DNA of 64,000 nucleotides from Tissierellia bacterium (GTDB lineage: Bacteria > Bacillota > Clostridia > Tissierellales > Tissierellaceae): the NCBI GenBank assembly GCA_012518035.1, contig JAAYTL010000001.1:20374-84373 (forward strand), given 5' to 3'. The notes beneath the pieces were generated by a model. The model saw nothing but the letters and a program-made list of their open reading frames with translations, was not told the origin of the DNA and made no database searches. The position numbers and the translations under genes are program-made. Positions 5,164-37,678 of this stretch are shown in pieces; the first letter of the stretch is position 1, and each line of letters opens with the position of its first letter.

Positions 5164-8100
5164 TTGAACTATGTATATCTAAATAAATTAATCAGGGATG
5201 AAGAATATAATTATTTAAAAGACTATAATCTATTGCTATATAAGGTAGAAATCTTTAAATCTACCATGGAGATGAAGTTATTCATCCAGGCTAAGGAGAT
5301 TCTTGGTAAGGAGTCCATAAAAGATATAGAAGAAATAATTAAGAAGAGCTTCCCAGATTTTAAGATTGATATAAATATTAAATATAAGATTGATACTAAT
5401 TCCCAGAAGGACATGGAAATTTATATAGATAGGATAAGGAACTATATTTTGGATAAGATACCCTCAAGTTCATCTTGGATTGAGGGTATAAAATTTGAAC
5501 TAGATGAAAATACCCTTAAGCTTTTAATTCCTAATGACATTGCCCTCCACTCCATGGATAGGAATGGTTTTATGGATGACTTAAGGAGCATGGTTCTCTC
5601 AGAGGTAGGTTTAAAACTATTTCTATCTTCCAGGGAGATAAACCCCATAGAGGCGGAAAGCTTTTTAGAGGAGAAATACCAGGAAGAAAAATCAATTTCA
5701 CAGGATGTTTTACTTAACTCTAACTATGAAGCTAAAAAATCTAATGGAAGGGCTAAGTCATCTAAGGATTATATTTTTGGTAAAGCAATTAAGTCAGAGC
5801 TTATCAAGATAAATACCGTAGATTTACAGACAGGAACTGCTGCTGTTAAGGGTGAAATATTTCAACTGGATACCAGGGATATTAAGGGAAATAGAACCCT
5901 AATTAGCTTTTATATTTCTGATTGGACTGATTCCATACTAGCCAAGGCCTTCCTGGCCAAGGATAAGGCTGAAGAATTATTAGCTAATATCAAATCTGGA
6001 GATTATGTAATCTTAGAAGGGGATGTTGTATATGATAGTTATTCTAAGACAGTAGCTATTATGCTTAAATCCCTTCAAAAGGTTGAGAAAGAAGAGCGTA
6101 AGGACCAAGCAGATGAAAAAAGGATAGAACTCCATCTCCATACTCAAATGAGCTCCATGGATGGGGTTACCAATGTGAAGAAACTAATTGAAAGGGCTCA
6201 TTCTTGGGGGCACCCTGCGGTGGCAATTACAGACCATGGAGTAGTACAAGCCTTTCCAGATGCTATGGAGATATCTGAAAGGTTGGGAATGAAAATCATT
6301 TACGGCCTGGAGGGCTACTTGGTAAACGACAAAAAGCAGATAATCACTGCCTATAATCCAGATAGGGATTATGATGAATTTGTTATATTTGATATAGAAA
6401 CCACAGGCTTATCAGCTATTAATGATGCTATAACCGAGATTGGAGCAGTGAAGGTTAAGGATGGTGAAGTTATAGATAGTTTTAGCCAACTAGTTAATCC
6501 AGGAAGGGAAATTCCTGAATTTATAACCAACTTAACTGGCATTACAAATGAAATGGTAAAGGATGCACCAACTATTGATGAGGTTATAGTTGACTTCAAC
6601 GAATTTATCCAAGGGAGTGTTGTGGTGGCCCATAATGCTAGTTTTGATGTGGGTTTCATTAGGGAGAACCTTAAGAAGGTTGGCTTAGGTTTATATAATC
6701 CAGTATTGGATACCTTGGAATTGGCTAGGGCCGTATTCCCAGATCTAAAGAACCACAAACTAAATACTCTTGCTGAACATCTAGAAGTTGTATTAGAAAA
6801 CCATCATAGGGCACTAGATGATGCAAATGCTACTAAGGATATCTTTTTAAAAACTATGGAGCTACTTAAAGCAAGGGGAATAACAAGTTTTGATGATATA
6901 AATAGATTAAACTCGAACAAGGATGCCACTAGGGATGAGGTATTCCATGTCACCATATTAGTGAAGAACCAAGTTGGCTTAAAGAATCTCTATAAGATAG
7001 TTTCTGAATCCCATATTAATTATTTCTATCGGAGGCCTAGAATCCCTAAATCCCTATTGGAAGCAAACAGGGAAGGCCTTTTGATTGGTAGTGCCTGTGA
7101 AGCTGGTGAATTATATAAGGCTATTCTCAAGGGGAGGTCCTATAACGAGATTAGAAGCATTGTACGATTCTATGACTACTTAGAGATCCAACCCCTTGAC
7201 AATAATATGCACTTGGTTCGAAATGGCAGTGTTAGGGATAGAAATCAATTGGAGGAAATCAATAGGAATATCTATAATTTGGGTAAGAAGTACAATAAGC
7301 TTGTAGTTGCTACTGGTGATGTTCACTTCTTAGACCCAGAAGACGAGATCTATCGTAGAATCTTGATGAGTGGTCAAGGCTTCCAGGATGCGGATACACA
7401 GCCTCCCCTTTACTTAAGGACTACGGAGGAGATGCTAGAGGAGTTTTCTTACTTGGGTCAAGAAATAGCCAAGGAAGTTGTTATATTAAATCCAAATCTT
7501 GTGAATAATATAATTGAAGATGTTAGGCCAATTCCAAAAGGAACCTATCCCCCTATAATCGAGGGCTCAGAAGATGAATTGAGAAAAATAACTTATGAAA
7601 GAGCTCATGAATTATATGGAGATCCCCTACCTGAAATTGTACAAAAGCGTCTAGAAAGGGAACTAACATCTATAATCAGTAATGGGTATGCAGTCATGTA
7701 TATAATCGCTCAGAAGCTGGTTTGGAAGTCCCTAGAGGATGGTTATTTGGTAGGCTCCAGGGGTTCAGTAGGTTCATCCTTTGCTGCTACCATGGCTGGT
7801 ATAACTGAGGTCAACCCCCTTAAACCCCACTATCTTTGTCCTAAGTGTAAAAACAGTGAGTTCTTTGAAGACGGTTCAATTGCATCAGGTTCAGATTTAC
7901 CAGACAAACTTTGTCCAGTATGCAATACTGAGTATGTCAAGGATGGCCATGATATCCCCTTTGAAGTTTTTTTAGGCTTTGAAGGAGACAAGGAACCAGA
8001 TATAGATTTGAACTTTGCAGGTGAATATCAGGCTAAGGCCCATAAATATACTGAGGAATTGTTTGGTGAAGAATATGTATATAGGGCAGGGACAATAGGA

Positions 8101-24570: not shown

Positions 24571-25806
24571 ATGATGAAAGCAGAAATAATCACAATTGGT
24601 ACCGAAATAACCATTGGCAGTACTTTAAATACCAATGCCTATTATTTGGCTCAAAAGCTCTTTGAACTTGGAATAGAGAACCATTATCAAACTACAGTTG
24701 ATGATGATGCCCAAAGATTAAAGGATGTTATTAGTATTGCCCTGAACAGGGCTGATATAATTATCACTACTGGCGGTCTAGGTCCAACTAAGGATGACAT
24801 GACTAAGGAAGTTATAGCTGAAGTTATGGGCTTAGAACTAGAACACAACCCTGAGATGGAAAAGCATATCCAAGATATGTTTACCAGGATAGGAAGATGC
24901 ATGAGTAGCAACAATAGAAAGCAAGCTACCAAGCCAGAAGGGTCTATTTTTATTGAGAATAGTGTTGGTACGGCTCCTGGAATTTATATTTATCATAAGG
25001 AAAAGAAAATAATAATGTTGCCTGGCCCACCCCGTGAGATGAGGACCATGTTTGAAAACCACGTAAAGGACCTAATTCAAGATGATTATATCATGTTAAC
25101 TAAGTCTGTAAATACTGTGGGGATAGGTGAATCATCCCTAGAGTCTAGATTAAATGAGCTAAACCTAGCCTACGAAAATATCAATATTGCCACCTTCGCC
25201 AGGGATGGTAGGGTTGAAATCAAGCTAATTGGCAAGGGATTAAGTAGGCAAGAAATAGAAAGGGACATGGATGAAATTATAGCCAGACTTAATGTAGAGT
25301 TCCGTGAATATATATATGGCTATGATAACATCAGCCTGGAAGAAGTTGTTGTCAACCAGCTAATGCAAAAAGGGCTTAAGATTGGCCTATGTGAATCCTG
25401 CACAGGAGGACTCGTATCCAGTATGATTACAAGGGTGCCAGGCGCTTCCAATGTCTTGGATAGGGCTGTTGTGACTTATAGTAATGAGGCAAAGATGGAG
25501 GAATTGAATGTAAAGAGTTCCACCTTGAAGAAGTATGGGGCTGTCAGTGAAGAGACTGCATATGAAATGGCCAAGGGTTTAATGGAAAAAGTTAATCTAG
25601 ATCTAGTTGCCTCTATAACCGGTATAGCTGGACCTACTGGTGCTAATGAAAATAAGCCTGTAGGCCTGGTCTATGTATGCATTATGTCCAAGGACAGGCA
25701 TAAGGTAATTAAGTTGAATTTTAACGGTAATCGAATCCAAATCCAAAATAGGACAGCCATAAATGTATTGGATGAAATAAGGAAATATTGTAGAGATTTT
25801 AATTGA
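24571..25806 (+). CDS. cinA: competence/damage-inducible protein CinA (MoCF + PncC domains)
   Basis: IITTGGLGPTKDD MoCF motif and C-terminal CESCTGG PncC motif. pgsA-cinA-recA synteny. Confidence 0.9.
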   Translation: MMKAEIITIGTEITIGSTLNTNAYYLAQKLFELGIENHYQTTVDDDAQRLKDVISIALNRADIIITTGGLGPTKDDMTKEVIAEVMGLELEHNPEMEKHIQDMFTRIGRCMSSNNRKQATKPEGSIFIENSVGTAPGIYIYHKEKKIIMLPGPPREMRTMFENHVKDLIQDDYIMLTKSVNTVGIGESSLESRLNELNLAYENINIATFARDGRVEIKLIGKGLSRQEIERDMDEIIARLNVEFREYIYGYDNISLEEVVVNQLMQKGLKIGLCESCTGGLVSSMITRVPGASNVLDRAVVTYSNEAKMEELNVKSSTLKKYGAVSEETAYEMAKGLMEKVNLDLVASITGIAGPTGANENKPVGLVYVCIMSKDRHKVIKLNFNGNRIQIQNRTAINVLDEIRKYCRDFN

Positions 25807-25831
25807 CATAATGGATAATATAGTATAAGAT
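25803..25831 (+). promoter_or_regulatory. recA promoter
   Basis: TTGACA (25803-25808), 17-nt spacer, TAAGAT (25826-25831). Confidence 0.6.
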
Positions 25832-25839
25832 AGAATAAA

Positions 25840-25851
25840 GAACGGACGTTC
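25840..25851. promoter_or_regulatory. LexA (Cheo) box upstream of recA
   Basis: GAACGGACGTTC, a perfect GAAC-N4-GTTC palindrome 9 nt downstream of the -10 and 40 nt upstream of the recA ATG. Confidence 0.85.
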
Positions 25852-25890: not shown

Positions 25891-26916
25891 ATGAGTGATT
25901 ATGAAGAAAAAAGAAAGGCACTAAACTTAACATTAAATCAGATAGAGAAACAGTTTGGCAAGGGATCTGTTATGCTTTTGGGAGATGGTGCTAAATTGGA
26001 TTTAGACGTAATCTCAACAGGATCCTTAGACCTAGATATTGCTTTAGGTATTGGAGGAGTACCAAGGGGAAGGATAATAGAGATTTTTGGACCTGAATCC
26101 TCTGGTAAGACAACCTTGGCCTTACATATAGTGGCTGAGGCCCAAAAAGATGGGGGTATTGCAGCCTTTATAGATGCAGAGCACGCCCTAGATCCTTCTT
26201 ATGCAAAAAATCTAGGGGTTGATATTGAAAATTTGATAATTTCTCAGCCAGATACTGGTGAGCAAGCCTTAGAAATTACAGAAGCCCTAGTTAGAAGTGG
26301 AGCTGTAGATATTGTTGTTGTAGACTCAGTAGCTGCCCTAGTTCCCAAGGCGGAAATCGAGGGTGAAATGGGAGATTCCCATATGGGGCTCCAGGCAAGG
26401 CTAATGTCCCAGGCTCTAAGAAAACTAGCTGGTTCCATAAATAAATCTAATACTACTGTTATTTTCATAAATCAATTAAGGGAAAAAATCGGTGTAATGT
26501 TTGGTAATCCTGAAACAACTACTGGTGGTAGGGCCCTTAAGTTCTATGCTAGTGTTCGCCTAGATGTTAGAAGGGTGGAAACTATTAAGCAGGGAGATGA
26601 AATCCTAGGAAATAGGACCAGGGTTAAGGTAGTTAAAAACAAGGTAGCCCCTCCTTTCAAACAGGCTGAATTCGATATCATGTACGGCAAGGGCATATCA
26701 AAGGAAGGTAATATAGTGGATGCCGGTGTTAGTGCAGGGATTATTAAGAAGGCAGGATCTTGGTTCAGTTATGGTGAGCACAAGTTCCAAGGTAGGGAAA
26801 ATGCCAAAGACTTCTTTGCTGAAAACCCTGACCTAAGGGAAGAAATCGAAGAGAAGATTAAGGAAAAGTTTGGACTAATAAAAAATAAGAGCTCCGCAAT
26901 GGAGGAAGAAAGTTAG
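25891..26916 (+). CDS. recA: recombinase RecA
   Basis: [15 protein letters not shown] Walker A, VVDSVAAL, and full-length collinearity with RecA. Confidence 0.98.
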
Positions 26917-26934
26917 AAAAATAGAGATTTATAT

Positions 26935-26962
26935 AAAACCTCCTCATAGAAGGAGGTTTTAT
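26935..26962 (+). terminator. recA intrinsic terminator
   Basis: AAAACCTCCT-CATAGA-AGGAGGTTTT followed by ATT. Confidence 0.75.
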
Positions 26963-26988: not shown

Positions 26989-27972
26989 TTGAGGATATTA
27001 TTTTTTACTGACTCTCATATCAGGGGTACTACACCTAGAAATCGAAAGGACGATTTTGTTGATACCCTAGAGGAGAAGTTTTTGGAAATTAGAGATATTA
27101 TAAATACGAACCATGTGGATTTTGTCTTGCATGGAGGAGATTTGTTTGATAGACCGGATGTATCCATATCCATTACAGCCCGTTTTTCAAGAATCTTAAA
27201 AGAAATCCAGGCTCCAATCTATATAGTTAGTGGAAACCACGATGTTTTTGGGCATAATCCACTCACTATAAATAGAACCATGTTAGGCTTATTAAGTCAA
27301 TTAGATATCTTTACTATCATTGATGAAAAGGATAAGCTAATCCTAGATAAGGATGGTATAAGGGTTCAGGTAACCGGTCAACCCTATATATATAATATGG
27401 ATGACTCAGCTAATCGAAAATACTATATCCTTGATGATGTAGATGAAGGAGTTAATTACTCAATACATATTGTGCATGGGATGCTTTTGGACAAACCTTT
27501 TGTTAAAGGTGTACCATATACCTTAGTGGAGGAAATCAAGGATACCAAGGCCGACATAACCTTAGCAGGACATTATCATTCAGGCTTCGATAATATCCAA
27601 ATTGAGGGGAAGTATTTTATAAATCCAGGCAGTATAGTCCGTATATCCAATAGTTTAAGAGAGATGGAAAGAAGGCCCAAGGTCATAATTATAGACCTGG
27701 AGGATGAAATTAAGATTTCCAACATCTATTTGGAAAGCGCACTAGACAGTAACCTGGTCCTAGACAGGGAAGAGATTGAAAAGAGTATATTTAAAAGGGA
27801 AAGACTATACGAATTTAAACAAACCATTGACTCTGCAGTAAACTTTGAAAAAATGGACATCAATGATCTCTTGATTGAGGTTTCCAGGAGCGAAGGATTG
27901 AGTGAAGAGGTTAAGGAGGAGGCCTTGAGGAGAATAGCTATGGTTCAGATGAAAGGATTAAGTGGTGATTAG
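26989..27972 (+). CDS. Mre11/SbcD-type calcineurin-like metallophosphoesterase
   Basis: All phosphoesterase motifs are present in order: FTDSH, HGGDLFD, SGNHD, IVHG, AGHYH. TTG start 5 nt after SD GGAGGTG. Confidence 0.8.
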   Translation: MRILFFTDSHIRGTTPRNRKDDFVDTLEEKFLEIRDIINTNHVDFVLHGGDLFDRPDVSISITARFSRILKEIQAPIYIVSGNHDVFGHNPLTINRTMLGLLSQLDIFTIIDEKDKLILDKDGIRVQVTGQPYIYNMDDSANRKYYILDDVDEGVNYSIHIVHGMLLDKPFVKGVPYTLVEEIKDTKADITLAGHYHSGFDNIQIEGKYFINPGSIVRISNSLREMERRPKVIIIDLEDEIKISNIYLESALDSNLVLDREEIEKSIFKRERLYEFKQTIDSAVNFEKMDINDLLIEVSRSEGLSEEVKEEALRRIAMVQMKGLSGD

Positions 27973-27973
27973 C

Positions 27974-29416
27974 ATGAAATATTTAAAAACAGTTATATTA
28001 GAAAACTTTCAATCCCACAAGCACACCTCAATAGAATTTAATGAAGGATTAAATGTTATCCTAGGCCCATCCGATTCTGGCAAATCTGCCATAATTAGGG
28101 GAATTAAATGGGCCCTATACAATGAGCCTGCTGGAGACTTTTTTATCAAGGAAGGGGAGCGCGAGGCATCAGTAACCCTAATCTTCAGTGATGATACTAA
28201 GGTACAAAGAATAAGAAGCAAGTCAAAAAATATCTATATTCTCAGCAAGCAGGATGGTGAAGAGCTCCGTTTTGAGGGGTTTGGTATGACTGTACCTGAA
28301 GAAATCATAGAAGCAACCGGAATATACAAGATTAAGCTGGATAGTGATTCCTCCAATGCCATCAATTTAGCTGAGCAACTTGAGGGCCCCTTTCTTCTCT
28401 CAGAGAAGACCAGTACCAGGGCAGTGGCCATAGGGAGGCTTATAGGCGTTAATGTGATAGACGATGCCCTAAGGGAGACCTTAAGGGATAAGGGTAATAA
28501 ATCAAGAAGAAAAAATGACTTGGAAGATAGAAAAGACAAGCTAAAAGAAGAATTAGGCCAATATGAATACCTTGATATGCTTAAACTAAAACTAGATAGG
28601 GTTGAGAATTTAAGAACAATTATTGCTGAAAAATCTAAGATGAAGGAAAGGCTTGAATCTTCAGCAGAAAACTATAGGAGACTTAACAAGGATCTAGTAT
28701 CTATCAATAAGCAACTATCCCGCCTAGATAAGCTAGATGAGATTGATAAGCTATTAAAGGATTTAAATTACTTAGCATCAAGGTTAAGATATCTAGAAAT
28801 TAAAAGAGAGAATTATAATAATTATAGGAGAGACATCTATAGCAGTGCTGACCTTATAAGTAAATTAAATGGAGTAGACCATGTAGATAGAATACTAAAG
28901 AAGACTGATAAATTATATTCCCAAATAAATAGACTGACCAGGCTTAAAAACAAGTTTGACACTATTAAAGGGGATAGGCAAGCTTTGAACAGGACCTATA
29001 CTAGGTTAGAAAACTTAGATAGGGTGGAAGATAACTTATCTTCCCTTAACAAAATCTCTCCTCAACTTAACAAGCTTAAAAAGTTAAAGGATGAGTATGA
29101 TAAGGTCCTAGAAAGTTTAAAAGTAGGTAGTGAATTTATATATAGATTTAAGGACCTGGAAAAAGCTGAATCCCTGTCTAAGGAAATGGATACTAGAGTA
29201 AAAAGACTTAATAGCTTAATGGACTTATCCATGAGATTAAAGAAATTGGAAATTAATCTTAAAAATGAAAGCCAAGAGATTGAAAGACTTGATAAGGGTA
29301 TAGAGATTCAATTAAGCAAGTATAAGGAAATTCTAGGGAAATTTGAGAGGTGTCCATTCTGTCTAAACGAAATTGATAGCGATAAAATGGAGCATATTAT
29401 CAAACATTATAAGTAG
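27974..29416 (+). CDS. Rad50/SbcC-like ATPase, N-terminal head plus ascending coiled coil ending in a CPFC hook
   Basis: SMC/RecF-type N-terminus ILENFQSH...LNVILGPSDSGKSA (Walker A). About 270 aa of K/E/L/N-rich heptad sequence follows, with CPFC 20 aa before the stop. No Walker B or signature motif occurs in this ORF. Confidence 0.7.
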   Translation: MKYLKTVILENFQSHKHTSIEFNEGLNVILGPSDSGKSAIIRGIKWALYNEPAGDFFIKEGEREASVTLIFSDDTKVQRIRSKSKNIYILSKQDGEELRFEGFGMTVPEEIIEATGIYKIKLDSDSSNAINLAEQLEGPFLLSEKTSTRAVAIGRLIGVNVIDDALRETLRDKGNKSRRKNDLEDRKDKLKEELGQYEYLDMLKLKLDRVENLRTIIAEKSKMKERLESSAENYRRLNKDLVSINKQLSRLDKLDEIDKLLKDLNYLASRLRYLEIKRENYNNYRRDIYSSADLISKLNGVDHVDRILKKTDKLYSQINRLTRLKNKFDTIKGDRQALNRTYTRLENLDRVEDNLSSLNKISPQLNKLKKLKDEYDKVLESLKVGSEFIYRFKDLEKAESLSKEMDTRVKRLNSLMDLSMRLKKLEINLKNESQEIERLDKGIEIQLSKYKEILGKFERCPFCLNEIDSDKMEHIIKHYK

Positions 29417-29425
29417 GGGGTAAGA

Positions 29426-29677
29426 ATGATGAATTATGAAATGGAATTGAACAAGCTTAAGGAAGATTTAGATAAGGCCAAGGATTTAAAGTATCGGGCA
29501 GAAGCTAGGTTAGATGAATTAAAGAAACAGGAAAATGAGTTAATAAAAGAACTAGAGGAATTAGGAGTAGACCCAAAAGATTTGGACTCAGAAATTGAAA
29601 AACTAACCAAGGAAATGAACAGTCTCTTGGATGAAGCAAATAGCCTATTACCTAAGGATTTACTAGAAAAGAAGTGA
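29426..29677 (+). CDS. 83-aa coiled-coil protein (candidate descending-arm fragment)
   Basis: Entirely heptad-like K/E/L sequence. SD GGGGGT precedes ATG 29426. Same reading frame as the upstream ORF, separated from it by one TAG. Confidence 0.5.
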   Translation: MMNYEMELNKLKEDLDKAKDLKYRAEARLDELKKQENELIKELEELGVDPKDLDSEIEKLTKEMNSLLDEANSLLPKDLLEKK

Positions 29678-29681
29678 TCTT

Positions 29682-30335
29682 ATGAATGAGAAAATTATAG
29701 CCTTAGATGAAAAGATAAGCGATTTAAGGGATTTCCTTGCCAGGGAAGGCGGTAAGAGAGAAAAACTTGAGGAACAATTAAAAGAGGTTGATGCGGATTT
29801 AATCCTAGTCTCTGACAATATAGAACTATTAGAGAAAGTTATTATCCTCTACCAAAAGACCGCTGAATTTGCAAGGAAACAAGCAACCATGCAAATAGAA
29901 TCATTGGTAACGAAATGCCTACAGTTCATTTTCGAATCAAATGTTGAGTTCCTTATTGAGATAGAAGAGCTGCGTGATAAGGCCAATGCTGAATTCTACG
30001 TAGTCAATGAGAGTGAGGACTTTATAATCAAGACCAGGCCAGAACTATCAAGGGGTGGTGGAGTAGTAGATATTGTTTCCCTAGCTTTAAGAATTGCCTT
30101 CTTACAGATACATAAGCCCAAGGTTGAGGGGCCCTTGATCCTGGATGAGCCTGCCAAACATGTAAGTGAAGAGTATATTTTTAATGTAGGCAATTTTTTG
30201 AAGCAGACTTCTGAAATGTTCAACCGCCAAATTATTATGGTAACCCATAACCAGCATTTATCAGCTATAAGCAACAACTGCTATAGAGTGGAGATAGACG
30301 ATTCAGTTAGCTATGTGACTAAAGTTGACCACTAA
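29682..30335 (+). CDS. Rad50/SbcC-like ATPase, C-terminal head fragment
   Basis: About 65 aa of coiled coil, then signature-like SRGGGVVDIVSLALRIA, Walker B PLILDEPAKH and H-loop MVTHNQ. No Walker A occurs in this ORF. Confidence 0.65.
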   Translation: MNEKIIALDEKISDLRDFLAREGGKREKLEEQLKEVDADLILVSDNIELLEKVIILYQKTAEFARKQATMQIESLVTKCLQFIFESNVEFLIEIEELRDKANAEFYVVNESEDFIIKTRPELSRGGGVVDIVSLALRIAFLQIHKPKVEGPLILDEPAKHVSEEYIFNVGNFLKQTSEMFNRQIIMVTHNQHLSAISNNCYRVEIDDSVSYVTKVDH

Positions 30336-30341
30336 TATATC

Positions 30342-30370
30342 TTGACATTAGTTTAGATAAGTAATAGAAT
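30342..30370 (+). promoter_or_regulatory. sigma-A type promoter of rny
   Basis: TTGACA (30342-30347), 17-nt spacer, TAGAAT (30365-30370), about 140 nt upstream of rny. Confidence 0.55.
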
Positions 30371-30511: not shown

Positions 30512-32059
30512 ATGGAGGTGTTTGACATTAAAGAAGTTTTATTCTCAATTCTTGGCGCACTTATTGGAATGATCGTCGGATATTTTATTCGAAAAAATAT
30601 AGGCGAAGGAAAAATAAATAATGCTGAAGAGTTGGCAAAAAAAATTATTGAAGATGCGAAAAAGAATGCTGAATCTTATAAAAGAGAAGCGATACTTGAG
30701 GCTAAAGATGAGATTCACAAGTTGAGAACGGAAGCCGAAAGAGAAAACAGAGAAAGACGCAATGAAGTTCAAAGATTAGAACGACGTGTCATCAAGAAGG
30801 AAGAATCTGTTGATCGAAAATTGGATTCCATTGAAAAGAAGGAAGAAACAATTGCCAAGAAAATCAAGCAATTGGAAGAAAAAGAAGCAACTATTAATAG
30901 TCTGCATGAACAGCAATTAAAGGAATTGGAAAAACTATCTGGCTTAACCTCTGAAGAGGCAAAAACCATCTTATTAGATGGGGTTAAAAGAGAAATCTCT
31001 CATGAAACTGCTGTTATGATCAAGGAAATGGAACAGCAGGCCAAATTAGAGGCTGAAAAGAATGCCAAGGAAATCATCACTATGGCTATACAAAGATGCG
31101 CAGCTGACCACGTTGCCGAGACAACTGTTACTGTAGTTTCTTTGCCTAATGACGAAATGAAGGGTAGGATAATTGGTAGAGAGGGAAGGAATATTAGGAC
31201 CCTTGAAACCTTAACTGGAATCGATTTGATTATCGACGATACCCCAGAGGCCGTAGTTTTGTCAGGTTTTGACCCTATAAGAAGGGAAATCGCTAGGATT
31301 GCATTAGAGAAGCTCATCGTAGATGGAAGAATCCACCCTGCTCGAATTGAAGAAATGGTTGATAAAGCCAAGAAGGAAGTTGAAAACATCATCAAGGAAG
31401 AAGGGGAACAGGCAGCATTTGAAACTGGTATTCACAATCTGCATCCTGAAATTATCAAGCTATTGGGTAGGCTAAGATATAGAACCAGCTATGGACAAAA
31501 TGTCCTAAAGCATTCTATAGAAGTATCCCATTTAGCTGGATTAATGGCTTCAGAACTTGGTGCAGATGTTAGGTTGGCCAAGAGGGCTGGTTTACTGCAT
31601 GACTTAGGAAAGGCTGTAGACCATGAAGTTGAAGGTCCTCATGTTGATATCGGGGTTGACTTAGCTAGAAAATATAGGGAATCCAAGGAAGTAGTCCATG
31701 CCATTGCAGCCCACCATGGTGATATAGAACCAACAACTATTGAAGCCGTACTGGTACAAGCAGCGGATGCAATATCTGCAGCTAGACCAGGAGCTAGGAG
31801 AGAAACCCTTGAAGCATATATTAAGAGGCTTGAAAAACTTGAAGAAATAGCCAACTCCATTAGAGGGGTTGATAAATCATATGCTATTCAAGCAGGAAGA
31901 GAGATTAGAATATTAGTTAAACCTGATGAAGTTGATGAAAGTCAAACGGTACACACAGCAAGAGAAATTGTTAAGAAAATTGAATCAGAATTAGATTATC
32001 CAGGTCAAATCAAGGTAAATGTAATTCGTGAAACCAGAGCTATTGAATACGCTAAGTAG
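30512..32059 (+). CDS. rny: ribonuclease Y
   Basis: N-terminal TM, coiled coil, KH ([15 protein letters not shown]) and HD domain (LLHDLGKA). The start is uncertain: ATG 30512 has no SD, while GGAGGTG at 30514-30520 precedes in-frame ATT 30527. Confidence 0.93.
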
Positions 32060-32181
32060 TAACTTAGCCAATAGCTTTTATATAGATTATAATATTAAAT
32101 ACTTAACTATGGATAAGTGTTACTTATATTATAATTATGGTTTAAGATATTCAGTTTAGTTGATAATGAACCTAGATAAAG

Positions 32182-32208
32182 AAAAACCTGCCTATAGGGC
32201 AGGTTTTT
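32182..32208 (+). terminator. intrinsic terminator downstream of rny
   Basis: AAAAACCTGCC-TATAG-GGCAGGTTTTT, located 20 nt before the PHP gene start. Confidence 0.7.
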
Positions 32209-32229
32209 CCATATGAAAGGAGTTTTAAT

Positions 32230-33048
32230 TTGAGGTATGATCTGCATGTCCATACGCATTATTCAGACGGTCTTCATAGTCCGAAAAAGGTTATAGATAA
32301 GGCAAGAAGCTTAGGTTTAAGAGGAATTGCTATAACTGACCATGATAGTGTAATGGGTATAGAAGAAGCCTTATCTTACAGTAAGGAATTTGAGGACTTT
32401 GAACTGATACCAGGAATAGAATTATCTTGTATCTATAGGGATGATGAAGTACATATATTAGGCTACTTCATCGACTACAAGGAAGAAAAGCTCCATAATA
32501 CTACTCAAGATTTAAGAAAACATAGAAAAATCAGGGGCAAAAGAATGGTAGAGAAACTAAATACATTTGGAATAGCTATAGATTTCCACAAGATTAAGTC
32601 GGATAATCCTAATGACTTTGTAGGTAGGGTAGCTATCGCCAGAGAGTTAATAAGCAAGGGTTATGCCAATAACATACAAGATGCCTTTAACAAGTACCTA
32701 AACCCAGGAAGACCTGCCTTCGTAGAAAGGTATAAATTAGCCGTAGAGGATGCTATTAAGCTAATTAAAGGTGCGGGAGGATTAGCTGTACTAGCTCATC
32801 CAGGACTTCTAAAGGATGAAACTAGCATAGACTACAGTATTATAAAAGGTATAGATGGGATTGAGGCCATCCATTCTAAACATACCCCCAAGGAAGTTAA
32901 GGCCTTCAAAGAAATAGCTAGAAGAAATAATTTGATAGCTACAGGCGGCTCCGACTGTCACGGTGAATACCATAATGGTGATATCCTATTGGGTAAGTAT
33001 TATACTGATCTGGATACTATAAAGATAATGAAGGAGAGGATCAAATGA
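32230..33048 (+). CDS. PHP-domain phosphoesterase (TrpH/YciV-like)
   Basis: YDLHVHTHYSDG, ITDHD and GGSDCHG PHP metal-binding motifs. TTG start 8 nt after SD AAGGAG. Confidence 0.85.
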   Translation: MRYDLHVHTHYSDGLHSPKKVIDKARSLGLRGIAITDHDSVMGIEEALSYSKEFEDFELIPGIELSCIYRDDEVHILGYFIDYKEEKLHNTTQDLRKHRKIRGKRMVEKLNTFGIAIDFHKIKSDNPNDFVGRVAIARELISKGYANNIQDAFNKYLNPGRPAFVERYKLAVEDAIKLIKGAGGLAVLAHPGLLKDETSIDYSIIKGIDGIEAIHSKHTPKEVKAFKEIARRNNLIATGGSDCHGEYHNGDILLGKYYTDLDTIKIMKERIK

Positions 33049-33428
33049 CTTTATACAAGGGCCAAAGACAAAGGCAATTTCCTCCAACCATAGGGACCAC
33101 ATCCTTTGTAAAACTATATATACTCCATATATTAATTGAAAAAAACTGTTATGGTAATAGGATTAAAGACGAGATAAGTGAGAGACTAAACCATAAATGG
33201 ACCCCAAGCCCTGGTATGATATATCCTTTGCTTAGGGAATTAGAGGAAGAGGGATATATAAATGGATGGTGGGAGGAACCCCAAAAGAGATCCATTAGAA
33301 GGTATAGGATTACTGACGAAGGTATCAAACATTATAAGGTCATCAGGAGACAGGCAAAGGAATCCTTGGATAATTCATTATATATAGTCAAAACAGTTTT
33401 GAATGACATATATAAGGAAAAGTATTAA
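33045..33428 (+). CDS. PadR family transcriptional regulator
   Basis: wHTH YGNRIKDEISERL...SPGMIYPLLRELEEEGYI. ATGA overlap with the PHP gene. Confidence 0.8.
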   Translation: MTLYKGQRQRQFPPTIGTTSFVKLYILHILIEKNCYGNRIKDEISERLNHKWTPSPGMIYPLLRELEEEGYINGWWEEPQKRSIRRYRITDEGIKHYKVIRRQAKESLDNSLYIVKTVLNDIYKEKY

Positions 33429-33466
33429 TTATATAGTTAAGCTCATCATGTCATAAACAAAATATT

Positions 33467-33510
33467 AAATGGTTTACATATATACTTTATGTAAACCATT
33501 TTTCATTTTT
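33467..33510 (+). terminator. intrinsic terminator after the PadR gene
   Basis: Perfect 14-bp stem AAATGGTTTACATA/TATGTAAACCATTT, 7-nt loop, then TTCATTTTT, 39 nt after the stop. The 3' arm resembles a XerD-arm word (see findings). Confidence 0.7.
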
Positions 33511-33897
33511 ATATTGTTATTATGGTTTTTAATTTCAACCTTACAAAAGATTAGAACCATAATTTTAAAGTTTATAAAAATGATCTTTAAAATATTGAAG
33601 TAGAAGCTATTTATACGATCTTTTGAGGGAGGCAAAAATTTTATTAAGAAGTCAAAATTATCAGGCCTTAAATTGGCCTGTAAGGCATTTTTAAGATGCG
33701 GTTAATATAATTAGATTATAATGTCGGTAAAATTAATTATAAAGGAAATATGAGCCTCTGAGTTGGTTTAGTAGTGATTAAGGTAAAATTTTGGTAAATC
33801 CAGCTAAATATTTACTATAAAATGAGTGTTTCCATAGTTGTAAGTGTGTTTTCAGCTGTTATGGCTATTGAGATGCCTAGTATAGCTATTAAGAAAA

Positions 33898-33907
33898 TCA
33901 CAAAATA
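33898..33907 (+). repeat. third copy of the 10-mer TCACAAAATA found in both arms of the downstream palindrome
   Basis: Exact 10-mer at 33898-33907. The same 10-mer occurs at 33960-33969 and, inverted, at 33972-33981. Confidence 0.6.
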
Positions 33908-33912
33908 TTATC

Positions 33913-33941
33913 TGGATATTTTTACTAGGTTGTGGTATTAT
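33913..33941 (+). promoter_or_regulatory. candidate promoter of the Xer-like recombinase gene
   Basis: TGGATA (33913-33918), 17-nt spacer, TGg-TATTAT extended -10 (33936-33941). Confidence 0.35.
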
Positions 33942-33954
33942 ATTATTATAAATG

Positions 33955-33986
33955 ATTAGTCACAAAATAGATATTTTGTGACTAAT
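33955..33986. repeat. 32-bp near-perfect palindrome (operator, RNA hairpin or recombinase core-type site)
   Basis: ATTAGTCACAAAATA-GA-TATTTTGTGACTAAT, 15-bp perfect arms. It also reads as 12-8-12: ATTAGTCACAAA / ATAGATAT / TTTGTGACTAAT. Ends 31 nt before the recombinase ATG. Confidence 0.6.
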
Positions 33987-34017
33987 GTAGTAAAAAAATT
34001 AAGAAAAGAGGATTTTT

Positions 34018-34983
34018 ATGACAAATACCCCCCTTATTCTTGAAGATTTTTTAAATTATATGGAAACTATCAGAGGTGCCTCCCCTAATACTGTAAAAGA
34101 ATACTATTATGATTTAAATACCTTCTTTCGCTACTTAAAGCATAGGTATAAAATGGTCCCTTCTGATACAGAGTTTGAAGAAATTGAAATCCATGATATC
34201 GACTTAGATCTAATTAAAAAAATAAATATACAGGATTTACATGCCTATGTTTCCTATGTAGACAAGGTTCTAAAAAATGGCAACAATGCTAAATCTAGAA
34301 AAGTGTCCTCCCTCAGGTCCTTTTTCAAGTACTTATACTCAACCCTTAACCTGATAGAGAAAAATCCTGCTGATTCCTTGGAGCTTCCTAAGGCCAACTC
34401 TAGGTATCCTGTCTACCTCACCCTAGACCAGGCTGAGACGCTATTAGATACGATTTTAGAAAACCCCAGTGAAGAATATCGTAAACGGGATTATGCTATT
34501 ATTATGCTCTTTTTAAACTGCGGTCTACGTCTATCAGAGCTTTCAAGTATAAATATTAGCAAGATCAAAAATAACGAAACCTTGACAGTTATCGGTAAGG
34601 GCAATAAAGAAAGAACCATCTACCTTAATGAGGCCTGCCAGGCCGCAATAAAAGATTACCTATCCATCAGGCCTAAGGATGCCAAGGACCCTGATGCCCT
34701 CTTCATCAGCAAGAGGAAAAACAGGATGAGTAATCGGGCCATTCAGCATATGGTAGAAAGATATTTTAAGAGAATGGGTTTGGATACAAATATATACTCA
34801 ACTCACAAGTTAAGACACACTGCTGCAACCCTCATGTACCAGCATGGAAATGTCGATATAAGGGCCCTACAGGAGATTCTAGGCCATGAGTCAGTATCCA
34901 CCACCCAAATCTATACCCATTTAGATGATGAAAGATTAAGGGATGCTATCAATAGCAATCCCCTTGCTAAGAGAAAGAAGTAG
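34018..34983 (+). CDS. tyrosine site-specific recombinase (XerC/XerD family)
   Basis: N-terminal SAM-like core-binding domain. Catalytic signature GLRLSEL (Arg), HKLRHTAAT (H-x-x-R) and LGHESVSTTQIYTH (His, Tyr). Confidence 0.85.
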   Translation: MTNTPLILEDFLNYMETIRGASPNTVKEYYYDLNTFFRYLKHRYKMVPSDTEFEEIEIHDIDLDLIKKINIQDLHAYVSYVDKVLKNGNNAKSRKVSSLRSFFKYLYSTLNLIEKNPADSLELPKANSRYPVYLTLDQAETLLDTILENPSEEYRKRDYAIIMLFLNCGLRLSELSSINISKIKNNETLTVIGKGNKERTIYLNEACQAAIKDYLSIRPKDAKDPDALFISKRKNRMSNRAIQHMVERYFKRMGLDTNIYSTHKLRHTAATLMYQHGNVDIRALQEILGHESVSTTQIYTHLDDERLRDAINSNPLAKRKK

Positions 34984-34985
34984 TA

Positions 34986-35288
34986 TTATTCTAGTACAGG
35001 AACAAAGATTATATCACCCGGATAAATATATGCTGTATCTAGGCTATTAAACTCCTTAAGTTTATAGACCAAGTACCTAACATCGTACTTGTCAGGCATA
35101 TTCCTTAAGGCAATATCCCAAAGGGTATCCCCTTCCATAACTAGAACTTCTATATAGTCTTCTTCTAACACCAGGCTATGGGCTCCCTTGGAGTTAAGTA
35201 TTGTAAATACAAGGGTAAATACCAGCACCATCAAGATAGTAGTAAACAAATAAAATCTTTGTTTATTTACAATTCTATACTTTTTCAT
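34986..35288 (-). CDS. LysM-domain membrane protein, YneA-like SOS cell-division inhibitor candidate
   Basis: Single N-terminal TM plus a LysM domain (VMEGDTLWDIA...GDIIFVP). Divergent from lexA with LexA boxes in its promoter. ATG 35288 with SD GGGGTG is preferred over the ORF-track TTG 35318, which overlaps a LexA box. Confidence 0.7.
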   Translation of the reverse strand: MKKYRIVNKQRFYLFTTILMVLVFTLVFTILNSKGAHSLVLEEDYIEVLVMEGDTLWDIALRNMPDKYDVRYLVYKLKEFNSLDTAYIYPGDIIFVPVLE

Positions 35289-35312
35289 AGTCACACCCCG
35301 CACTATTGTTCT

Positions 35313-35324
35313 GAACAATTGTTC
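35313..35324. promoter_or_regulatory. LexA (Cheo) box 1, yneA-like promoter-proximal
   Basis: GAACAATTGTTC, a perfect GAAC-N4-GTTC palindrome just downstream of the yneA-like -10. Confidence 0.8.
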
Positions 35325-35332
35325 TTATCTAT

Positions 35333-35361
35333 ATATTAATCAAACGTCCGTTCCTTGTCAA
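35333..35361 (-). promoter_or_regulatory. promoter of the yneA-like gene
   Basis: On the minus strand: TTGACA (35361-35356), 17-nt spacer containing GAACGGACGTTT, TAATAT (35338-35333). Confidence 0.6.
35342..35353. promoter_or_regulatory. LexA (Cheo) box 2
   Basis: Minus strand reads GAACGGACGTTT, one mismatch from the recA box GAACGGACGTTC. Lies in the spacer of the yneA-like promoter. Confidence 0.7.
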
Positions 35362-35381
35362 TAGGTTTTTGCAAAAAATCA

Positions 35382-35393
35382 GAACCTTTGTTT
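35382..35393. promoter_or_regulatory. LexA (Cheo) box 3, overlapping the lexA -35
   Basis: GAACCTTTGTTT, a GAAC-N4-GTTT box overlapping TTGATT. Confidence 0.6.
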
Positions 35394-35420
35394 GATTATT
35401 TGTTTTCCTTGTGTTATAAT
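35392..35420 (+). promoter_or_regulatory. lexA promoter
   Basis: TTGATT (35392-35397), 17-nt spacer, TGt-TATAAT extended -10 (35415-35420). Confidence 0.65.
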
Positions 35421-35466
35421 TTGTTTAGTTATATAAGTGAGGATGGAAAACTAAGGAGGTGCCAAC

Positions 35467-36084
35467 ATGTATGAAGATTTGTCCCAAAAACAGATAGAGA
35501 TCTTATTATATATAAAAAATGAAATCCAAAGACAAGGTTACCCCCCTGCTGTAAGGGATATATGTAAGGGTGTTAATCTAAAGTCCACCTCAACTGTTCA
35601 CGGACATCTAGAGAAACTTGAAGCGAAAGGATATATTAGAAGGGACCCCACCAAACCTAGGGCCATAGAGATATTGGATAAGGAAGATAATTTTCTACTG
35701 GCCAAGAAAAAGACTGTTGATATCCCCATTGTGGGTCAGGTAACAGCTGGTCTACCAATTCTAGCGGTAGAAAATATTGAAGATACCTTCCCTATAGCTG
35801 TTGAATTTGTTGAAGGTCATGATGTTTTTTTCTTAAGAGTCAAAGGTGAAAGCATGATTGAAGCAGGAATTATGGATGGAGATCTTGTCCTAGTCCAAGA
35901 ACAAAAAACAGCTAAAAACGGTGAAATTGTAGTTGCCCTATTAGAAGATGAGGCAACAGTAAAAACTTTCTATAAGGAGAAAGACCAAATAAGACTACAA
36001 CCTGAAAACCAGTTTATGGAACCAATCTATACAAGGAATGTACAGATTATAGGAAAGGTTATTGGCTTATTTAGGAAGATATAA
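35467..36084 (+). CDS. lexA: LexA repressor
   Basis: N-terminal wHTH, cleavage-site region [10 protein letters not shown], and S24 peptidase [12 protein letters not shown]. Confidence 0.96.
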
Positions 36085-36097
36085 GATTATATAAAGC

Positions 36098-36134
36098 AAA
36101 AAGCTATGTAATGGGATATTACATAGCTTTTTTT
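36098..36134. terminator. bidirectional terminator between convergent lexA and ynbB-like genes
   Basis: AAAAAGCTATGTAAT-GGGAT-ATTACATAGCTTTTTTT, an 11-bp stem flanked by an A run and a T run. Confidence 0.8.
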
Positions 36135-36137
36135 ATC

Positions 36138-37430
36138 TCATTTTAAATTGATTAGGCCTTTTTTATAGAGGTTGTTTAAGGATTTATAAACTCCTAACTT
36201 GCAATGGTCATAGGTCAGACCGCCCTGATAATAGGCATAATAGGGTTCCCGCATAGGTCCATCAGCGCTTAACTCAATTGAGGAGCCATCTATAAAACCA
36301 CCAGCAGCCATTATAACCTTATCCTCATATCCAGGCATTTCCCATGCTTCTGGCATAATGAAGGAATCAACAGCAGAGGCTGCTTGGATACCCATGCAAA
36401 ATTCAGCAACCCTCTCCCTACTTAATAATTCCACCCCTTGGATAATATCACTCCTCTTATCATCTAAATCAGGAGTTATTTTGAAACCCAAGCTCTTGTA
36501 AACTGCCCCTACAAGCAAGGCACCTTTAACAGCTTCAGAGACGATATGAGGGGCTAAAAATAATCCCTGCAGGGTAGTTCTGGTAGTTCCAAAGGTAAGA
36601 CCTGTGTCCTTACCAAGACCGGGTGCTGTACTCCTAATAGCAACCATCTCTACCAGATCCCTTCTACCAACTATGTAACCTCCAGAAAGAGCGATGCCCC
36701 CTCCTGGATTTTTTATTAGGGATCCAGCCATTATATCAGCTCCAACATCAGTTGGTTCTTTATAATCTAAAAACTCCCCATAACAATTATCAACCATTAT
36801 AATAATATCCGTATTATAGCTTTTAATTGCCCTTATGGCATCCCCTATCTCCTCTATGGTCAAGGCCCTTCTATCACTATACCCAGTAGACCTTTGAATT
36901 CCTATCATCCTAGTATCCTTGTTGATGGCCTTTAGAACACTATCAATATCTATTTTATTATCTACTAGGTCTACCTCCTTATATTTAATTCCAAATTCAG
37001 CTAGGCTACCTGCTGAATTCCCCTTTATTCCAATCACCTGTTGTAGTGTATCATATGGAGCCCCTGTTACGTATAAGAGCTCATCCCCTGGCCTTAAGAT
37101 TCCAGATAAGGTAAGTGCTAGGGCATGGGTTCCTGAAGCAATAGTAGGCCTTACCAAGGCATCATCAGTATTAAAAACCAGAGAGTAAATTTCTTCAGCC
37201 TTTTCCCTTCCTACATCCCCATATCCATAACCAGTAGTCCAATTAAAATGCATGGAGCTAAGCCCTGCTTCCTGCATCTTTGCTATTACCTTGTATTGAT
37301 TGTACTCTCTTATCCTTTCAATCTCTTCTACCTTATCTACTATCAACTTTTCCTTATCATTTACAAATTCAATGATTTCTTCTTCTATTCCCAATTCTTT
37401 ACATAATATATTTACTGTAAACTGATTCAT
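36138..37430 (-). CDS. YnbB/aluminium-resistance family PLP-dependent enzyme (Cys/Met metabolism fold)
   Basis: 430 aa containing TGYGYGDVGREK and an aminotransferase-like fold pattern. Position downstream of hfq. Confidence 0.8.
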   Translation of the reverse strand: MNQFTVNILCKELGIEEEIIEFVNDKEKLIVDKVEEIERIREYNQYKVIAKMQEAGLSSMHFNWTTGYGYGDVGREKAEEIYSLVFNTDDALVRPTIASGTHALALTLSGILRPGDELLYVTGAPYDTLQQVIGIKGNSAGSLAEFGIKYKEVDLVDNKIDIDSVLKAINKDTRMIGIQRSTGYSDRRALTIEEIGDAIRAIKSYNTDIIIMVDNCYGEFLDYKEPTDVGADIMAGSLIKNPGGGIALSGGYIVGRRDLVEMVAIRSTAPGLGKDTGLTFGTTRTTLQGLFLAPHIVSEAVKGALLVGAVYKSLGFKITPDLDDKRSDIIQGVELLSRERVAEFCMGIQAASAVDSFIMPEAWEMPGYEDKVIMAAGGFIDGSSIELSADGPMREPYYAYYQGGLTYDHCKLGVYKSLNNLYKKGLINLK

Positions 37431-37456
37431 CTTGTGACTTACCTTCCTATATTTTT

Positions 37457-37678
37457 TTACTCATGGAGATTTATTGTCGTTGCCGGTACTATAGTGGAGA
37501 TGGCATGCTTATAAATGAGTTGTTGCTTTCCATCACTGTCTAAGACCAAGGTATAATTATCAAATCCTTTAACTAGGCCCTTGATTTGATATCCATTTAC
37601 CAAGAAAACAGTCAAGGTCACGTTTTCTTTTCTAGCCTTGTTGAGAAATAGATCCTGCAGATTAATGTTTTGCTTCAT
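37457..37678 (-). CDS. hfq: RNA chaperone Hfq
   Basis: Sm motifs [39 protein letters not shown]. Confidence 0.94.

Follow-up and report, generated by a model that had tools for sequence, protein, structure and literature searches.

Can a Rad50-type ATPase be encoded in separate pieces and still form part of a working DNA-end nuclease, or do such pieces mark the decay of a single gene? The question is raised by four consecutive open reading frames (ORFs), here called O1 to O4, at positions 26989–30335 of a 64,000-nt stretch of DNA from an uncultured Tissierellaceae bacterium; this stretch is the window referred to throughout, and all positions are window coordinates. A first-pass annotation had read the four ORFs as an Mre11/SbcD-type nuclease plus a Rad50/SbcC-like ATPase in three parts, and had considered a multi-chain repair complex, a defence-type nuclease and a decaying gene as possible explanations. 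We propose, with a probability of about 0.78, that O1–O4 constitute a functional four-subunit Mre11–Rad50-type DNA-end nuclease whose Rad50-like ATPase would be assembled from three chains and which is linked to the recA/SOS unit. The conserved split, the complementary half-heads of the ATPase, and neighbours that include recA, recX and addBA all support the view that the locus encodes a multi-chain repair complex.

An ORF reading of the window places the four genes on the same strand with gaps of 1, 9 and 4 nt, and the genes, gaps and sequence motifs reported in the first-pass annotation were all present where it had placed them. O1 (26989–27972, + strand; 327 amino acids, aa), an Mre11/SbcD-like metallophosphoesterase by Pfam, profile and structural model, begins with TTG behind a GGAGGTG ribosome-binding site. 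O2 (27974–29416, +; 480 aa) begins with ATG, with an alternative GTG start at 27962 that would add 4 residues, and comprises a Rad50-like N-terminal half-head (residues 1–160), a helical repeat arm, a zinc-hook motif and a 17-aa tail. O3 (29426–29677, +; 83 aa), recognized as an ORF and by its conservation, is a helical subunit always encoded between O2 and O4. O4 (29682–30335, +; 217 aa), assigned by ORF, profile and conservation, consists of an N-terminal helix of ~60 aa followed by a Rad50-like C-terminal half-head. Each of the four pieces is served by a separate ribosome-binding site and start codon, and no paralogue of the cassette was found elsewhere in the window. Public annotations call the products ‘metallophosphoesterase’, ‘AAA family ATPase’ and ‘ATPase’, and JGI labels them SbcD/SbcC.

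The translation of O1 contains the motifs DSH, GGDLFD, SGNHD, VHG and GHYH and matches the Pfam family Metallophos (PF00149) with an E-value of 3.9e-14, above the family cut-off. In an alignment of 20 diverse homologues, residues D8, H10, D51, N83, H84, H163, H195 and H197 are invariant, and in a search of solved structures the O1 family profile recovered the Mre11 proteins of T. maritima and P. furiosus at 4–6e-9. An AlphaFold2 (AF2) model of O1 reached a predicted local distance difference test score (pLDDT) of 79.8 and a predicted template modelling score (pTM) of 0.78; when this predicted model, and nothing else, was submitted to Foldseek, all of the top 50 PDB matches were Mre11 or SbcD, with template modelling (TM) scores of 0.53–0.63 over 265–310 columns, which points to the Mre11 architecture of nuclease plus capping domain as opposed to that of other metallophosphoesterases. 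By sequence and model, O1 is a putative Mre11-fold nuclease whose active site appears intact. Three helices predicted near its C-terminus (residues 260–285, 291–299 and 306–324), a region in which E311, A312 and R315 are conserved and pLDDT is low, may represent a Rad50-binding domain.

O2 and O4 resemble complementary halves of a Rad50-type ATP-binding cassette (ABC) head. The Walker A motif of O2, GPSDSGKS (residues 31–38; 28064–28087, +), has invariant G31, D34, G36 and K37, the Q-loop residue Q135 is invariant among homologues, and the CPFC zinc-hook motif (residues 460–463; 29351–29362, +), with invariant C460, P461 and C463, lies 17 residues before the stop. O2 matches Pfam AAA_23 (E = 2e-15), and against solved structures the O2 family profile recovered the N-terminal half of archaeal Rad50 at 1e-12 and, over residues 411–479, the Rad50 zinc-hook structures 1l8d and 6zff at 2–3e-4; the hook family PF04423 itself matches three of 22 O2-family members. 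The N-terminal part of the O2 AF2 model was aligned by Foldseek with the P. furiosus Rad50 N-half (1f2u_A) at a root-mean-square deviation of 3.0 Å over 102 columns with 37% identity. The conserved Q-loop region of O2 (residues 123–174) was modelled with very low confidence, as is expected because half a domain was modelled alone.

The remaining motifs of an ABC head are found in O4: a signature-like SRGGG (residues 123–127; 30048–30062, +; G125 and G127 invariant), a Walker B motif LILDEP (residues 152–157; 30135–30152, +; D155 and E156 invariant) and an H-loop VTHN (residues 187–190; 30240–30251, +; H189 invariant), with Q183 also invariant among homologues. The O4 family profile recovered the Rad50 C-half at 7.7e-14 in the same collection of solved structures. 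Scans with single sequences gave partial, sub-cut-off matches, of O1 to Mre11/SbcD, of O2 to the Rad50/SMC N-terminus and of O4 to the Rad50 C-terminus.

That O2 and O4 are halves of one head is further indicated by natural fusions. In two proteins, P0244 and P0265, residues 1 to ~175 of O2 are joined directly to residues ~35–215 of O4 in a single chain that has no arm, no hook and no O3, and an O1 orthologue is encoded adjacent to each. One of these armless fusions lies in the order recA-recX-O1-fusion-rny-ymdB-spoVS, the orthologous locus; the second is found immediately upstream of addB-addA, in the order O1-fusion-addB-addA. These armless two-gene variants, consisting of O1 and a head made from the O2 N-half and the O4 C-half, occupy L117 1–12360 and L116 958–9025. 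By analogy, P0244 and P0265 are nature's counterparts of the Rad50 head constructs that were engineered for crystallography. With the two half-heads linked in this way in nature, O2 (Walker A, Q-loop) and O4 (signature, Walker B, H-loop) are predicted to make one ABC head. The first-pass annotation had made its interpretation depend on whether the two proteins are such halves, and profile searches, Foldseek and the two fusions agree that they are complementary halves of Rad50.

The first-pass annotation had also noted that a single uninterrupted gene in close relatives would point to a pseudogene or sequence error, and we found the opposite: three separate O2, O3 and O4 genes were present in every close family member examined (~60 genomes, ~20 viral contigs, phages and plasmids). 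We scanned one genome per species with an alignment of 13 O4 sequences and tabulated ORFs and profile matches in the 80 loci returned. The cassette O1 (~327 aa), O2 (~480 aa), O3 (~80 aa) and O4 (~217 aa) was present in ~60 of the 80, spanning several Bacillota orders, and almost all of these ~60 were flanked by recA (or recX) and rny, so that the chromosomal order cinA-recA-(recX)-cassette-rny-spoVS holds across orders and the three-piece layout is kept at the recA-rny position. Carriers include Tissierellales, Peptoniphilaceae, Thermosediminibacter, Tepidanaerobacter, Caloramator, Natroniella, Alkalihalobacillus, Halalkalibacter, Shouchella, Tumebacillus, Paludifilum, Ammonifex, Desulfovirgula and a Sumerlaeota metagenome-assembled genome (MAG). 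O1 adjoins O2, is fused with it, or sits just after O4 in nearly all loci.

Sequence lengths are equally stable. O4 homologues at 65–79% identity are all ~217 aa long, a stand-alone O4 of ~217 aa persists down to ~31% identity, O2 homologues are all ~480 aa, and O1 homologues ~327 aa. An exhaustive search with O4 at E ≤ 1e-10 returned at least 1285 clusters at the 50% identity level; among the best 150, 134 had lengths of 195–245 aa, and the distant clusters are mostly without names. Judged from these comparisons, the split between O2, O3 and O4 is ancient and under selection, as is the O3 subunit.

These data bear directly on the possibility that a single sbcC/rad50 gene was broken by stops or frameshifts in this genome, through decay or a sequencing artefact. 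Canonical Rad50 and SbcC are single chains, and in the window O2 and O3 do share a reading frame, with only TAG and 9 nt between them. Yet exact O4 occurs on 252 contigs and exact O1 on 227, which makes more than 220 independent contigs for both; the three pieces recur at unchanged lengths, down to ~30% identity, in hundreds of clusters and ~60 species, in phages and plasmids as well as chromosomes; and a ribosome-binding site and start codon accompany each piece. Frameshifts of draft assemblies, where we met them (L029, L037, L045 and L075), fall at random places, unlike the conserved breaks. We therefore give decay almost no probability: a pseudogene or artefact is excluded by the conservation of the pieces across taxa, phages and plasmids.

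The shared frame was examined at 29414–29428, where the O2 stop and the O3 start read TAG GGG GTA AGA ATG, and where read-through would give an O2–O3 fusion. It is probably a coincidence, because the frame is not kept in relatives (the gap is 2 nt in L001).

Mobile elements carry the same arrangement. A tblastn search detected O4-like genes in Bacillus phages and large Firmicutes plasmids, and ~20 IMG/VR contigs show the O2|O3|O4 pattern. Prophage phBC6A51 encodes, in order, O2 (518 aa), a 100-aa protein, O3, O4, a 125-aa protein and O1 (327 aa). In phage 0305phi8-36, gp8 (769 aa) is a fusion of O1 and O2 (E = 1e-77 and 2e-105) and is followed by gp7, which is O3, the unrelated gp6, and gp5, which is O4. 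The P. polymyxa plasmid pSC2 and the C. baratii plasmid pCBJ encode an O1–O2 fusion followed by O3 and O4, and in pCBJ the set adjoins helicase, primase and HU genes. Across these elements O1 is relocated or fused to O2, and the order and breaks of O2|O3|O4 are constant. Yoshida, Claverie and Ogata (2011; PMC3175470) described gp8 of 0305phi8-36 as an Mre11/Rad50 fusion and stated that one P-loop NTPase segment of the phage protein ‘was not observed’; the split went unrecognized in that study because the missing half is a separate gene, gp5 (O4).

The proteins inserted between conserved pieces in phages, namely BC1853 and BC1856 of phBC6A51 (L084 4428–4730 and 5629–6006) and gp6 of 0305phi8-36 (L083 4282–4998), do not resemble any of O1–O4. 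More distant O2/O3/O4 sets were seen at L120 193–7506 and L118 237–7962, in surroundings that look like mobile elements: one set adjoins ParA/ParB, NurA and a TopoVI-like gene, another an SNF2 helicase and DUF2786; no adjacent O1 was detected within the stretches examined.

The arm of the ATPase departs from the ‘heptad-like’ sequence of ~270 aa that the first-pass annotation had described in O2. Autocorrelation of the profile has maxima at lags of 47, 94 and 141 residues, revealing instead a tandem array of 47-aa helical repeats (28580–29341, +) with units starting near residues 203, 250, 297, 344, 391 and 438, and helix breaks in the AF2 model (196/197, 253, 299/300, 345–347 and 392–394) coincide with the repeat boundaries. 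The distance from Walker A to CPxC is 421 ± 3 aa in 60 of 82 loci and 317, 373–376 or 465–470 aa in the rest, differences that correspond to whole units of ~47 aa. O3 is built as a helix, an LGVxPExL turn and a second helix ending in LLPxDL; a comparison of the O3 and O2 profiles gave no significant indication that O3 is a further 47-aa unit (probability 14%). O3 and the O4 N-terminal helix probably extend over no more than the stretches of the arm next to the hook and next to the head.

Several observations weigh against a Mre11–Rad50-type nuclease in its plain form. None of O1–O4 reaches the curated NCBIfam cut-offs for SbcC, SbcD, Rad50 or Mre11: O1 scores 34.2 bits on TIGR00619 (cut-off 77.65) and 20–35 bits on the NCBIfam Mre11 equivalog models (cut-offs 434–600), and the score on the sbcc_Staph model is 22 against a cut-off of 920. 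The signature motif of O4 is RGGG, in an [SA]RGGG variant, in place of the usual SGG. The arm is unequal, with ~290 helical residues in O2 against ~130 from O3 and the O4 N-terminal helix together; this inequality, noticed in the first-pass annotation, is real and conserved across loci. As the O2 arm varies among the 82 loci, O3 (77–92 aa) and the stretch between the O4 start and RGGG (~122–126 aa) stay unchanged. Seven genomes (L033, L038, L040, L042, L043, L044 and L046; Acetivibrio and some Clostridia MAGs) keep O4 beside rny without adjacent O1–O3. Finally, we infer the ATPase activity, nuclease activity and complex formation of O1–O4 from their sequences.

Because the O2 arm varies by 47-aa units without compensation in O3 or O4, the picture of a Rad50 simply cut at its hook is incomplete. 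An intramolecular antiparallel arm would need matching changes in its return strand, and for this reason we suggest that the O2 repeats double back within their own chain or pair with those of a second O2.

The seven genomes with O4 alone also bear on another explanation, that the cassette encodes an SMC-like structural or segregation factor, or an RNA factor linked to RNase Y, with a phosphoesterase acting on nucleotides or RNA. In these genomes O4 is intact, ~50–55% identical and directly upstream of rny; in L046, for example, it occupies 5935–6636 in the order FtsK, radical SAM, FolD, O4, rny. Such a role would also suit the annotation of some relatives as ‘chromosome segregation ATPase’ or ParA, and the resemblance of the C-terminal half of O1 to YfcE/Vps29-type phosphoesterases. 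We consider it unlikely given that Mre11/SbcD fill the entire list of top structural matches of O1, that Mre11 and Rad50 lead the profile matches of O1, O2 and O4, that the hook motif is conserved, and that recA, recX and addBA as neighbours point to DNA recombination; adjacency to rny is explained equally well by the ancestral recA-rny synteny of Firmicutes.

The position of the cassette suggests how it is expressed. The upstream neighbour in the window, as in nearly all relatives, is recA (25891–26916, +), and rny (30512–32059) lies downstream. A sequence scan placed a promoter-like site, TTGACA-17-TAAGAT (25803–25831, +), and a perfect LexA (Cheo) box, GAACGGACGTTC (25840–25851, +), in front of recA, and most Tissierellales relatives have similar perfect boxes ahead of recA. 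The 72 nt that separate recA from O1 contain no promoter-like site; a 12-bp hairpin with a weak U tail (26933–26962, +; ~−15 kcal/mol) follows recA and is probably a leaky terminator or attenuator. Since O1 has no promoter of its own and the U tail of the hairpin is weak, the cassette is probably transcribed by read-through from the recA promoter. The recA–O1 gap measures −4 to 70 nt in most relatives and −4 to +13 nt in many lineages, and gaps of 500–690 nt are filled by a RecX-like gene overlapping O1.

From the layout of these signals, the cassette is probably the distal part of the recA transcription unit, not a discrete operon. The first-pass annotation had described a discrete operon bracketed by a recA terminator and an rny promoter. 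Its downstream boundary holds, with a promoter-like site matching at 11 of 12 positions (TTGACA-17-TAGAAT; 30342–30370, +) just past the O4 stop, whereas a strong recA terminator and a promoter belonging to the cassette were not recovered. Nor does its statement that no LexA box precedes the cassette stand, given the perfect box GAACGGACGTTC ahead of recA, the likely source of cassette transcription.

About 5 kb downstream of the cassette, lexA (35467–36084, +) lies beside a divergent LysM-domain ORF (34986–35318, −) that is YneA-like, and four Cheo-box-like sites occur at 35300–35393, one of them perfect (GAACAATTGTTC, 35313–35324). The presence of lexA, a YneA-like gene and Cheo boxes indicates that the genome has a standard Firmicutes SOS circuit.

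The same synteny bears on whether O1–O4 defend against phages or plasmids, as Lamassu, Gabija or Wadjet do, by coupling an SMC-like sensor to an effector nuclease, and lie beside recA by chance. Relatives do occur on phages and plasmids, and PADLOC returned weak partial matches of O2 to LmuB (3e-17) and GajA (~1e-9) and of O4 to mad3 (4.5e-7), but these lie mainly in the P-loop and coiled-coil regions that such proteins have in common. Partner genes of Lamassu, Gabija, Septu or MADS are absent, the neighbours being cinA, recA and rny. Unlike defence islands, the cassette holds a fixed housekeeping position across orders; many taxa show translational coupling of the cassette to recA or recX, and one variant lies beside addBA. 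The mobile copies are phage-borne, and their surroundings are replication and recombination modules with helicase, primase and HU as neighbours. With this synteny and the missing partner genes, the defence-type nuclease of the first-pass annotation is a very unlikely reading.

We return to the four-subunit nuclease, whose mechanism we infer from its homology to Mre11–Rad50. On binding ATP, two O2/O4 heads would come together, hold DNA ends or hairpins in a clamp and control cutting by an O1 dimer, as in SbcCD/Mre11–Rad50. Zinc bound by the CPxC motifs of O2 would link two complexes, the arm's return strand next to the hook and next to the head would come from O3 and the O4 N-terminal helix, and the 47-aa array of O2 would be self-contained, folding back on itself or pairing O2 with O2. 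Given recA, recX and addBA as neighbours, a role in recombinational repair is suggested: the chromosomal cassette, transcribed with recA under LexA, would probably prepare broken or blocked DNA ends for RecA-dependent repair, and the phage and plasmid copies would provide the same module in replication and recombination.

A more far-reaching proposal is that the family is a distinct, ancient class of Mre11–Rad50 built as a non-covalent ring. The chain would always be broken just past the zinc hook and before the C-terminal head, with O3 bridging the gap; the modular long arm of 47-aa units would pair with itself or a second O2 and not with the return strand; the breaks would form a built-in gate that lets DNA in or out, or would act as a checkpoint on assembly; and the whole would be the DNA-end processor, encoded in the recA operon, of many Firmicutes and their phages. 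Taken jointly, these parts make a possible but rather doubtful combination, and we offer it tentatively.

Elsewhere in the window, GC skew flips from ~+0.2 to −0.2 and gene orientation from + to − near 34–36 kb (window 32000–37500), and an ORF for a XerC/D-type tyrosine recombinase lies at 34018–34983. The flip looks like a replication terminus or strand-switch point, ~4–8 kb from the cassette.

Mre11–Rad50/SbcCD is a universal DNA-break machine, and how DNA enters its ring and what its arm and hook do are debated. A natural and widespread form with its ring cut at the hook, with an extra arm subunit, a quantized arm length and armless relatives, would offer a ready-made experiment on those debates. 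Thousands of bacterial, phage and plasmid genes that now go under ‘ATPase’, ‘hypothetical protein’ or ‘ParA’ would be re-annotated, among them the ‘missing’ half of the 0305phi8-36 Mre11/Rad50 fusion. The first-pass annotation knew of no SbcCD/Mre11–Rad50 system built in this way, and our full-text literature searches agree: they returned no description of a split Rad50/SbcC beside recA, with the limit that the 2020 ABC-ATPase classification of Krishnan et al. lay outside them and a prior listing is possible. In a paper on phage SPN3US, ‘split’ refers to gene order and not to a split protein.

Among known systems, the archaeal and Thermotoga Mre11–Rad50 complexes (P. furiosus, M. jannaschii and T. 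maritima; 1f2u, 3av0, 3qg5 and 1l8d) are, by profile and by structure, the best matches of O1, of the O4 head and of both the head and the hook of O2. They share with the cassette a phosphoesterase nuclease, an ABC head with Walker A in its N-terminal part and the signature, Walker B and H-loop in its C-terminal part, a CPxC hook and adjacent genes. Their Rad50, however, is one chain of ~880 aa with two equal arms, whereas the cassette has three chains, broken 17 aa past the hook and ~60 aa before the C-terminal head half, an ascending arm of 47-aa repeats in variable number, an RGGG signature and a shorter O1 (327 aa). Bacterial SbcCD (E. coli, Staphylococcus and B. subtilis) is similar in that the nuclease gene comes first and the ATPase gene next, and by analogy the same ATP-dependent end and hairpin nuclease activity would be expected; it differs in that SbcC is a single chain of ~1000 aa, is not syntenic with recA, and has curated models whose cut-offs are far from the scores obtained here.

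Phage T4 gp46/gp47 and other phage SbcCD-like recombination nucleases recall the replication and recombination modules in which mobile-element copies of the cassette are set, but gp46 is a single chain with short arms. We know of no O3-like subunit for T4 gp46. Among the Mre11/Rad50 (SbcDC) fusions reported from Mimivirus, plasmids and 0305phi8-36 (PMC3175470), gp8 of the phage belongs to the cassette family, whereas in the window O1 and O2 are separate.

Within Firmicutes, SbcE/SbcF (YhaN/YhaO) of B. subtilis likewise pairs an SMC-like ATPase with a metallophosphoesterase and acts in double-strand-break repair (PMC2811018). O2 matches the YhaN-type family AAA_27 below its cut-off (E = 0.0055), and 20 of 22 homologues match it at 0.01 or lower (best 4e-6), matches that are much weaker than those to AAA_23 and Rad50. 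By its description YhaN is set apart, as a single chain of 963 aa with a central domain of its own, encoded in the yhaONM locus. The SMC-like proteins of Gram-positive bacteria have been counted as four, SMC, SbcC, RecN and SbcE (PMC2811018); the cassette family would add a fifth SMC-like system of Firmicutes, one hard-wired to recA, recX and addBA.

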